A stretch of DNA of 61,873 nt, filler included, from Nemertoderma westbladi (GCA_032718475.1; 3 parts of 3 records of this genome joined end to end with filler, not necessarily neighbours in it), one strand, 5' to 3'. Positions 25,078-27,228 are shown, numbered from the whole stretch's first letter. Program-made: numbers and translations. The notes: a model not told the origin generated them from the letters alone.

Positions 25078-25089
25078 TAACCAGTATAG

Positions 25090-25103
25090 GCAATAGCAAG
25101 AGG
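25090..25103 (+). promoter_or_regulatory. Orthomyxovirus-like conserved segment-terminal motif GCAATAGCAAGAGG
   Basis: Lies at the exact 5' border of the viral insert and starts 48 nt before the ATG; resembles influenza termini (A: AGCAAAAGCAGG; C/D: AGCAG(A/U)AGCA(A)GAGG) as recalled. Confidence 0.5.
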
Positions 25104-25137
25104 TTAATTAACAAACTACTATACAAACCCATTAACA

Positions 25138-27099
25138 ATGGCATCCAGTCAAGACTCAAACTCATCACAAACGGTCGATCCGGACGTGTGTATGGTTGCA
25201 GACGACGCGCTGGCGCAAAGAGTGTCACCTGAGAAAAGGCCAAGCTCAAACGGGGCGACCAACTCAGCGGTGATGAAAAAGTTCCAATCGAGCAATATAG
25301 CACTTATGACAATTCCGTTGGATGTAAACCAAGCGACCTCAATCGATGATATACTTGAAGTGGTGATCTCAGTTGACGATGCATCGACACTTCGTAATTA
25401 TCTCACTAGTTCTATGCCCGGATGGCCGGTCGGCGACAAAGAGAAGAGCGTAACTGGGTATGAATTCCTCATGAGTACTTCGAAGGGAATTATGGCATTG
25501 ATATGTCGAGGACAGATGTTGAATTCGATCTTCGAAACAGGGATCGATGTAATGACTCTGGTAAAAAGGGCCTGGGGCCTCGTTAGAACAGTTGAGGGGA
25601 ATCTACAGGTTATCACCCCTAAGAGCAAGATTACAGTAGATAATGCCAAATCTAAATGGCAGAATAATGCTGGTAGTGAGGAACGCACCGACAAAAAATG
25701 GGAAGAATATTTATCCAATTACCCAGGAGAGGCCCTGTATGAGGACTCGACTGACACTTTTTACCAGACTATTAGACTCATCGCTGCTGACCGCAAAATA
25801 AAGATCCGCAAACTGAACATCAGTTCAGTCGCTAAAGTTATACTCTCCGTACTCAAGTCTCCCAAGGACTTTCGGTTTGGTGACTATGGCCCTAATGCTA
25901 CTGAAGTTGAATATTTAAAGAAGAGATTAGAAAATCTAGACAAAGGGCTAGGACTTTTTTCGGAGGTGGCAACACGATATCGGGCACTAGTGAACCCTAC
26001 CAGGATGAAACTCACTAACGACTCCGCCATGAAGGTGAGGGATGCCTTGAGGGTCTTTGGAATCAAGGGCTGTACCCTTGGGAAAACAGATCAAATCAAA
26101 TATCGGAAGAACCTCGGACTCGTATATAAACTGGAAGCTTTAAGCTCCCACCGAGGGAAGGTGAACCTTAAACGATTAAATAACAATTCAGTTGGTAAAA
26201 AGGGTGGCCGCCGGGTGCTAGGGAAAGACACTGCCAAAACGCAGGTAGCTGCAGTTAATAAGGCAGGCGCTACTAAAGCGGCTAAAGTAATTAGCGGACT
26301 GATGGACTGCTCCGTAAGGGCGGAACAAAAAGAATTGATCAAGAAATTTGGGCAGGAAATGCCCAAAATGGAGAATGATGATTTCAAAAACGGTCATTCC
26401 TTTATCCTCCAGTCATTCGCAACATTCTTACCAAAGTCACAGGTAAAGGTATGCGTCCCACTAGCTCATTGGAGCATTGAAACAAATCGTGAAGCCGAAC
26501 CGTCCCAAGTTATCGCACGGATGAACCTATGTCACGAGCCCTCCCTCTGCGAGCCAGAGGTTGTAATCCTTTGGATGCTGGACGCCTGTACGGATAACCT
26601 GAATGTCATTGGAGAGTTAGTCGGATTTGAAAGAGGTACTTTTAGGTGCAGATCGGAACTTCCAGTAAAATCAAAGTTAGACCTCAGACGGATTAACAAC
26701 CAAGAAGCAATGCTACATAATCATCCGTTCATTAATAAGTGGGCAGCCCCGTTAAAGGGCTCTGCTACGAAATCCCAGACTGTCTCGGGAGATTTTATTG
26801 CAATCCCTTCGTGTCATTTTCCGAGAATCAACTCTAATAAGATCGAGAGGAAGTCGGCGCTTCTAACATCTTTCAGCACCTGCAAGGCGCGGGTTGCGGA
26901 TTTAGTAGACAAGGAGATACAAGACATCCGCAATGGCAAAGTTACCGACGCTCAGTTTGACGGAGACAAGATGTACTCTTTTAGCATCGACCAGACGAAT
27001 GGAAACGTCCGAATTGCTACCAGTCCTATGCCAATTGCCAAAAAATGGGCAATAAAAACTTGGCTGTCTGGACTTGAACCTGAAGAGGAGGCAAAATAA
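25138..27099 (+). CDS. NP: Endogenous orthomyxovirus-like (Articulavirales) nucleoprotein, intact 653 aa
   Basis: Intronless, basic and of higher GC than the flanks. Colinear influenza-NP-like blocks: KKWEEYLSNYPG; LKRLNNN; AEQKELIKKF; FILQSFATFLPKSQVKVCVP; ILWMLDACTDNLNVIGELVG; KWAAPLKGS..VSGDFIAIPS; RVADLVDKEIQDIRNGKVTDAQFDGDKMYSFS; acidic C-terminus. Confidence 0.75.
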   Translation: MASSQDSNSSQTVDPDVCMVADDALAQRVSPEKRPSSNGATNSAVMKKFQSSNIALMTIPLDVNQATSIDDILEVVISVDDASTLRNYLTSSMPGWPVGDKEKSVTGYEFLMSTSKGIMALICRGQMLNSIFETGIDVMTLVKRAWGLVRTVEGNLQVITPKSKITVDNAKSKWQNNAGSEERTDKKWEEYLSNYPGEALYEDSTDTFYQTIRLIAADRKIKIRKLNISSVAKVILSVLKSPKDFRFGDYGPNATEVEYLKKRLENLDKGLGLFSEVATRYRALVNPTRMKLTNDSAMKVRDALRVFGIKGCTLGKTDQIKYRKNLGLVYKLEALSSHRGKVNLKRLNNNSVGKKGGRRVLGKDTAKTQVAAVNKAGATKAAKVISGLMDCSVRAEQKELIKKFGQEMPKMENDDFKNGHSFILQSFATFLPKSQVKVCVPLAHWSIETNREAEPSQVIARMNLCHEPSLCEPEVVILWMLDACTDNLNVIGELVGFERGTFRCRSELPVKSKLDLRRINNQEAMLHNHPFINKWAAPLKGSATKSQTVSGDFIAIPSCHFPRINSNKIERKSALLTSFSTCKARVADLVDKEIQDIRNGKVTDAQFDGDKMYSFSIDQTNGNVRIATSPMPIAKKWAIKTWLSGLEPEEEAK

Positions 27100-27228
27100 A
27101 CTCTATATAAACTAACCGTATTTAGCGCTTTATTACTGGACTTATTACAGCTATATGCTGTACGTATTCATTTGTTAACATGAAAGATGGCGTTAACGGC
27201 CAAATGTATTAATTTAAAGAAAAAAAAA

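Follow-up and report, generated by a model that had tools for sequence, protein, structure and literature searches.

How a coding sequence laid out like a viral message came to stand inside a DNA transposon is the question raised by a 61,873-nucleotide (nt) stretch of Nemertoderma westbladi DNA (GCA_032718475.1). The stretch consists of three joined parts; it is referred to here as the window, and all positions are counted from its first letter. A preliminary description of the sequence had proposed a fossil influenza-type messenger RNA (mRNA) that preserved the promoter terminus of the virus and perhaps a host leader acquired by cap-snatching. The foreign insert occupies positions 25075-27226 (2.15 kb) within a damaged transposon, and is likely the complementary DNA (cDNA) of an orthomyxo-like nucleoprotein (NP) mRNA. 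The fuller reading, a DNA copy of the complete NP mRNA of an undescribed influenza-like virus (Articulavirales) with a cap-snatched leader, is moderately favored. The proposal of a fossil message was partly supported, by the foreign ends of the insert, by the likeness of its product to NP, and by the retention of the terminal motif in a diverged copy; its A-tract may be either a poly(A) tail or the encoded U-track.

All parts named in that proposal (leader, motif, start codon, stop codon, 3′ untranslated region and A-tract) were found in their places when the sequence was checked. Read on the forward strand, the insert begins with GGG (25075-25077), which intact transposon contigs lack, followed by the 12-nt leader TAACCAGTATAG (25078-25089), which ends in AG and is a candidate cap-snatched host fragment. 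The segment-terminal-like motif GCAATAGCAAGAGG (25090-25103) comes next and, by comparison with influenza A, begins at position 2 of an AGC-type terminus. The remainder of the 5′ untranslated region (UTR) is A/C-rich (25104-25137), and leads into an intact open reading frame (ORF) of 653 codons (25138-27099; ATG at 25138, stop at 27097-27099), which likely encodes a divergent orthomyxo-type NP. A 116-nt 3′ UTR (27100-27215) and the A-tract AAAG-A9, AAAGAAAAAAAAA (27216-27228), complete the arrangement, the final two A being common to an inverted transposon copy. The insert thus comprises a single viral-type transcript span without introns, as judged from the sequence and from ORF calling, with 2137 nt from the motif through the unique part of the A-tract. 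This anatomy had been drawn correctly in outline, but four features had been overlooked: GGG at the left junction, flanks that are inverted and folded back, a missing target-site duplication, and further repair patches nearby. The leader is indeed non-transposon sequence, but consists of 15 nt, GGGTAACCAGTATAG, once GGG is counted with the 12 nt originally assigned to it.

The ends of the insert were defined with public contigs, which were placed at 80% likeness on 24076-28400 (four runs) and on 25040-27262 (two runs, one sample). Contigs were the only data used; X2 and X3 derive from one sample, which differs in both sample and study from X1, and contig depth here is not equivalent to copy number. 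The interrupted element (24114-25074, forward strand) is the left part of a multi-copy DDE transposon of the integrase-core type, with a contig depth of 132-654 and a match to Pfam rva_4 (E=4.7e-4) that falls below the curated cut-off; the name IS3EU is that of the preliminary description. Compared with the majority contigs, this left part carries deletions of about 17 nt and 132 nt, a 4-nt insertion, and four substitutions. Transposon contigs in both X2 and X3 go on after 25074 with ACAATGGCGATAATGCATTC..., a continuation that keeps the integrase-core frame (GTETT-TMAIMH), so that alignment moved the breakpoint from the earlier estimate of about 25077 to 25074/25075. The same contigs showed that the leader and the motif are foreign to intact copies, as the preliminary description required, and ruled out the leader as intact-transposon sequence or as an intron donor. 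The A-tract is foreign in part; AAAG and the following seven A are absent from intact copies, whereas the last two A (27227-27228) also occur in the inverted transposon copy.

The identity of the ORF product carries much of the argument. The idea of an NP was taken from the wording of the preliminary description and from known NP motifs, and was examined with seven influenza-type NPs (P0001, P0013, P0017-P0019, P0021 and P0022; influenza A/B and fish influenza-like). A further search for more distant NPs yielded only those of influenza B and of a salamander virus, and long contigs with internal matches served as decoys. Pairwise alignment with distant-homology matrices gave a summed Z of 27.6 against the seven NPs at the best setting, a value reached by none of 1000 shuffles and by none of 61 real decoy proteins of at least 400 amino acids (aa). 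Influenza B NP alone gave Z values of 6.2-6.6, compared with a maximum of 2.8 for the query against 117 decoys, and neither block shuffles nor the reversed protein accounted for the signal. Residues 391-520, taken alone, aligned to influenza B 288-428 (0/300 shuffles), and residues 521-653 to influenza B 442-554 (1/300 shuffles), so that collinearity with NP holds for the C-terminal 260 aa only. The isoelectric point (pI) of 9.29 lies within the range of 9.09-9.49 found for the NPs, with which the protein also has an acidic tail in common.

Several results weigh against this assignment. The 653-aa protein has no match in Pfam, PDB sequences, viral contigs or metagenome contigs, and it is itself absent from the protein collection searched; a 5.8-billion word search (covering proteins of 359-1143 aa) and a phmmer search over 1.84 billion representatives were likewise blank. 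No NP homology of database significance was obtained for the ORF with PF00506, HMMER or hhalign. The HMMER NP profile scored -0.8 bits, no better than controls (among those that were scored, 11 of 84 decoys and 50 of 612 shuffles did as well), and the hhalign profile gave E=0.43, with 91 of 150 shuffles as good, although its best stretch was nonetheless the collinear one. The same A/B-type profile also recovered no Thogoto or isavirus NP from the PDB at E<=10, so its reach is short. How strong the pairwise signal is varies with the setting (4, 33, 0, 5, 0 and 0 of 200 shuffles reached the summed Z in six settings), and the best setting was picked after the results were known. Residues 1-130 and 131-390 carry no NP signal (231/300 and 150/300 shuffles). 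AlphaFold2 models, whether from the single sequence or with a 12-row alignment, had a predicted local distance difference test score (pLDDT) of 34 and were unusable as folds; searches with them returned no usable match, the sole row at E<0.001 having a TM score of 0.10. Taken together, the sequence comparisons indicate that the ORF very probably encodes an orthomyxo-type NP.

The flanks differ by five substitutions and one insertion or deletion (indel) in 1308 nt, and at this divergence a frame would stay intact without selection with a probability of about 0.26; the intact ORF therefore needs no selection, and was rejected as a mark of host selection.

The 5′ end of the insert resembles the message-sense terminus of an influenza segment. 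Set against the influenza A NP segment (L002), the motif shares 9 of 12 letters with positions 2-13, a score reached by 2.5e-4 of window positions; with influenza B (L127) it shares 7 of 12 (1.2e-2 of window positions). The terminus is of the AGC type, but its first A is absent. For comparison, the terminal consensus of isavirus is AGCAAAGA (PMC3003268). The motif with six further letters had no match in metagenome contigs.

The 15 nt ahead of the motif (12 without GGG) have the form expected of a cap-snatched leader, being non-viral, of suitable length, and ending in AG. Influenza A cuts host RNA 10-13 nt from the cap, and leaders of 8-18 nt in isavirus and 9-11 nt in Quaranfil virus are described in PMC3893164, according to which Thogotoviruses have no leaders and apparently do not snatch caps. 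Purine-ended leaders prime by A:U or G:U pairing on the last U of the template (PMC4446424). A leader ending in G would thus prime by G:U pairing to yield leader+GCAA..., as is seen in the insert, and both the leader length and the final G fit cap-snatching of the influenza or isavirus kind by analogy. In that case the donor, a capped host RNA, would start (G)GTAACCAGTATAG. Reverse transcriptases copy the cap and/or add untemplated C at RNA 5′ ends. Of the G at 25075-25077, between one and three may be cap-derived or untemplated, leaving 12-14 nt, or the leader may begin with them. There is about an even chance that the leader is a cap-snatched host fragment.

The 3′ end is less telling. In the influenza A NP sequence, 16 terminal letters follow the A-run, and isavirus mRNAs end 13-18 nt short of the segment end (PMC3003268); nothing viral follows the A-run of the insert. 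In agreement with the preliminary description, no complementary terminal motif was found within two mismatches in 27091-27700, save for two matches that belong to transposon copies. The A-tract holds only seven unique A, too few to tell a primed poly(A) tail from an encoded track, which counts against the mRNA reading. Runs of at least nine are frequent in the window (8 A-runs and 4 T-runs), so that only the place of the A-tract is informative. Since the short tract cannot discriminate, the mRNA reading rests on both ends jointly, and, if the NP identity is granted, the insert is quite probably a copy of an mRNA.

The flanks of the insert bear on how it was acquired. A 10-bp inverted repeat (24636-24657) spans the junction of the 132-nt deletion (24654/24656), where intact copies have 133 other letters, and acted as the pivot of a fold-back on the right side. 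The DNA to the right of the insert does not continue the transposon. It consists of an inverted 87-nt copy of transposon 24648-24734 with the deletion junction included (27227-27313, reverse strand), then a forward 261-nt duplicate of 24636-24900 at 97% identity (27304-27564), and then a repair patch (27565-27582, forward strand), composed of a 6-nt spacer and a repeat of the preceding 11-12 nt, beyond which unrelated repeat DNA follows. Because both arms include the deletion junction, which intact copies lack, both were copied from the same deleted element. At 24734 the transposon piece ends in TT, to which the final two A of the A-tract are complementary; these letters likely mark the priming site. 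No target-site duplication is present, in that no short direct repeat was found at the insert junctions, the flanks being 25074 in forward and 24734 in reverse orientation. The missing duplication and the inverted flanks ruled out a standard long interspersed nuclear element (LINE) insertion, and the inverted, folded-back arrangement identifies the event as capture by break repair. The left and right transposon copies differ by four substitutions and one 4-nt indel, and the right-hand copies equal the majority transposon at all four sites where the left copy is private; the insertion event is therefore young and, if these differences are real, not an artefact of a single molecule.

The inverted and forward arms form a perfect 86-bp hairpin (27227-27402; z = -29.6), which, if transcribed, would yield double-stranded RNA beside the viral insert. 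Rfam matches to mir-135 and mir-2009 at 27261-27368 stayed under the gathering score, and were rejected as reflecting this perfect hairpin only.

The most likely course of events would begin with the viral polymerase, primed by a piece of capped host RNA of 12-14 nt whose final G pairs (G:U) with the last U of the template. The viral message would then have been polyadenylated at the U-track. In a germ-line cell, the broken transposon strand ...GATATT-3′ (24734) may have paired with the A-tail, allowing the reverse transcriptase of a host retroelement to copy the RNA up to the cap and to leave GGG. Ligation of the cDNA end to position 25074 of the transposon would have sealed the left side, while a fold-back at the 10-bp inverted repeat, together with the patched joint at 27565, closed the right. 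Serial template jumps by the reverse transcriptase of a non-long-terminal-repeat element could alternatively give the same order of parts. Two reverse transcriptase fragments are present in the window.

Other junctions at this locus are patched (at 24655 and at 27565-27582, the latter 18 nt long and near the leader in size), and the leader could have arisen in the same way, which is the main competing view. By this account, the insert is the same viral NP copy, its 15-nt leader is a DNA-repair patch, either untemplated or assembled from transposon DNA, that was added when the cDNA was joined, and either the real leader was lost or a genome-sense or antigenome RNA was the template and was copied to the U-track. 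The A-tract hardly exceeds an encoded U5-7 track, and 13 of the 16 letters of the leader plus G can be assembled from two bits at 24199-24229. This match was noticed first and tested afterwards; it was reached by 0.7-2.6% of shuffles and by 2.3-8.3% of real 16-mers from the window, and its source lies 850 nt off. No template was found within 100 nt of the junction, and the longest match to the leader elsewhere in the window, 11 nt, is at chance level (23/300 shuffles). A patch would also require the cDNA to have ended precisely on position 2 of the terminus before gaining a leader-sized addition ending in G, and a copy of genome or antigenome RNA should have retained the terminal A. A repair patch is therefore an unlikely, though serious, explanation of the leader.

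Contigs of the same organism contain further copies of the ORF, which bear on the origin of the insert. X2 and X3 contigs matching 25309-26989 fall into at least three tiers of about 92%, 84-87% and 77-81% identity, and some of them are far deeper (49-177 in X3) than the insert. X1 shows a short depth excess at 26251-26395, and an X2 contig at about double depth (26650-27211) hints at a second copy that shares the 3′ UTR. Nine nucleotides are deleted in frame at 25664 in one X2 contig, and another, at a depth of 4.2, has a 1-nt deletion at 26648 that may be an error. Codon position 3 holds 32 of the 40 displayed differences between copies (p=2e-9), and 29 of the 35 changed codons are synonymous, with no stops. 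These 40 are drawn from 201 differences; the display favors well-supported rows, the 80% rule favors conserved parts, and individual codons might be classed differently if they carry additional changes outside the display. The third-position pattern fits separate captures out of an evolving virus population, and the diverged copies indicate several captures from a single virus lineage.

One of these contigs, of 1162 nt (record 10 of X3), is 77% identical to the insert at 25687-25834 and contains a further piece ending at 25118. Depth arithmetic (18.1 = 8.6 + 49.1 x 28/145; 11.2 = 8.6 + 49.1 x 4/75) indicates that this piece covers at least 25091-25118, with the tool's warning that joints with short sides at low likeness are less reliable. 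The coding stretch past 25118 did not align. Since the motif piece aligns and the coding stretch after it does not, conservation is greater at the motif end than in the N-terminal part of the coding sequence, as would be expected of a segment terminus. A whole family of germ-line captures, each with the viral promoter end and a different stolen leader, from an influenza-like lineage of a marine non-arthropod worm, can be suggested only tentatively.

The copies also bring up the possibility that the ORF is not viral, but was retroposed from a rapidly evolving gene family of the host or of a transposon, the motif being a chance look-alike. Purifying selection among diverged copies would suit a host family too, as would the high depth of some copies, and the lack of any database match together with the failed profile and fold tests is in keeping with such an origin. 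It leaves unexplained the collinear NP signal in two separate parts, the matching pI and acidic tail, and the motif match in the place where a terminus is expected. In nematodes, too, the NP segments of orthomyxo-like viruses (2004 and 2368 nt) lack a BLAST match, and were recognized by HHpred only (PMC12770441). A non-viral ORF is thus improbable.

Spliced leaders are short and end in AG, as the candidate does. A host spliced leader, either trans-spliced onto the viral RNA or snatched from spliced-leader RNA, and therefore the same in all copies, was considered for this reason, and trans-splicing has been reported in an acoel worm (10.1101/2022.08.27.505549). The candidate does not match the acoel leader printed in that report, and a full-text literature search with the leader letters found no spliced-leader paper. 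Trans-splicing at AG would, in addition, take away the G of the AGC terminus, whereas GCAA is retained here, which leaves this origin highly improbable.

The contigs support the insert as a physical unit. One X1 contig (depth 11) spans 25045-27256 with no differences; X2 and X3 contigs begin at 25045, and X3 ends at 27256. The junction contigs thus reach 30 letters beyond each junction, one fewer than the 31-letter bridging rule, which is as expected of a contig that meets a high-copy repeat. Either X1 or X2 may be the source data of the assembly. Perfect fold-backs are typical amplification artefacts, the right-hand copies equal the majority transposon as noted above, and the fold-back center at 27314 is unseen in the displayed contigs, but an assembly or amplification chimera is a most remote explanation for the arrangement, since both insert junctions, if only 30 letters deep, occur in contigs from two samples and two studies (X1; X2/X3), and it can still hold for the fold-back itself. 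The depth of the insert relative to the transposon was 11 versus about 170 in X1, and about 6 versus 355-650 in X2/X3; a ratio that differs between samples is a hint that this copy is not fixed. X5 contains next to no insert words, but barely covers the transposon too, and so is no empty-site control. This copy is likely young and possibly not fixed.

Bornaviruses and filoviruses, whose nucleoprotein messages have left copies in mammalian genomes, cap their own RNA. Those mRNA-derived endogenous viral elements (EVEs; bornavirus EBLN and filovirus NP copies, described in PMC2987831) are like the present insert in comprising one viral transcript of a nucleoprotein gene, with an intact ORF and a 3′ A-tract. 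They have target-site duplications, the mark of LINE insertion, whereas the insert has none, and has inverted flanks and a foreign 5′ leader instead. Orthomyxovirus-derived EVEs of arthropods, such as the Quaranfil-like GP in Ixodes (PMC2987831) and the PpyrOMLV EVEs of a firefly (PMC6191289), are likewise segments of a segmented negative-strand virus in an invertebrate genome, but the protein of the insert is far from all searchable NPs. According to PMC2987831, none of the insect EVEs showed an apparent poly(A) or duplication; the insert, in contrast, retains both message ends. The nematode orthomyxo-like NP segments measure 2.0-2.4 kb, compared with 2137 nt here, and neither they nor the insert have a BLAST match; those viruses are live RNA viruses (PMC12770441). 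With the NPs of influenza A/B and fish influenza-like viruses, the protein shares a collinear C-terminal half (15-18% identity), pI, an acidic tail, and a similar 5′ terminus of the gene, but it is about 90-150 aa longer than influenza A/B NPs, and its N-terminal 390 aa are without measurable similarity. The comparison covered influenza-type NPs of the A/B and fish kinds, and closeness to influenza proper is not implied.

The locus is best regarded as a genuine and recent EVE, derived from an orthomyxo-like NP message of great divergence, orthomyxo EVEs as such being already known. Among aquatic invertebrates, divergent Articulavirales have been described almost entirely from PB1, their other segments having escaped even structure search (PMC10636315), and a copy that retains both message ends gives both the NP and the promoter end of a divergent lineage. 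If the leader is host-derived, it would directly attest that a lineage of this kind snatches caps as influenza does, and would be a rare fossil of the snatching step. The proposed family of captures, if true, would amount to a fossil library of cap-snatching that shows the promoter and the priming rule of a virus never isolated, and the motif GCAATAGCAAG could be used to detect its other segments. The junctions, for their part, show that a viral sequence can be captured when a break within a DNA transposon is repaired, not by ordinary LINE insertion. In the open-access literature searched, no paper was found that unites cap-snatching, an endogenous viral element and a leader, and no comparable case was seen among the matches listed, as judged by title or the start of the abstract. 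No paper joining orthomyxoviruses with xenacoelomorphs was among the matches listed, which is weak evidence, and the literature search found no paper on quaranjavirus termini.

The window is otherwise rich in mobile elements, with transposase or integrase ORFs of Mutator-like, piggyBac-type, Harbinger-type and BEL/Pao-type, and also contains G protein-coupled receptor (GPCR) genes. Assembly gaps with the spacer TTAATTAATTAA are located at 23976-24075 and 52690-52789; the first ends about 40 nt left of the interrupted transposon, so that the left outer flank of the locus lies in the gap. A high-depth contig in X1-X3 links 24311 to 24110 via 31 other letters, and perhaps represents either the opposite transposon end or a tandem arrangement. 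Intact Mutator-like (593 aa, 47496-49277, reverse strand) and piggyBac-type (634 aa, 50502-52406, forward strand) transposase ORFs adjoin each other. At 9799-12073, the reverse strand carries two neighboring ORFs without introns (330 and 375 aa); the second is a rhodopsin-family GPCR by Pfam, and the first resembles it while having no Pfam match. Further ORFs without a Pfam match occur at 20091-20765 (reverse strand, 224 aa), 38738-39532 (forward strand, 264 aa) and 41162-42475 (forward strand, 437 aa), the latter two of which may be pieces of one transposase-like gene. About 800 nt to the right of the insert, at 28036-28250, lies a repeat with a depth of over 100,000 in X1-X3, which is likely a satellite or a miniature inverted-repeat transposable element.

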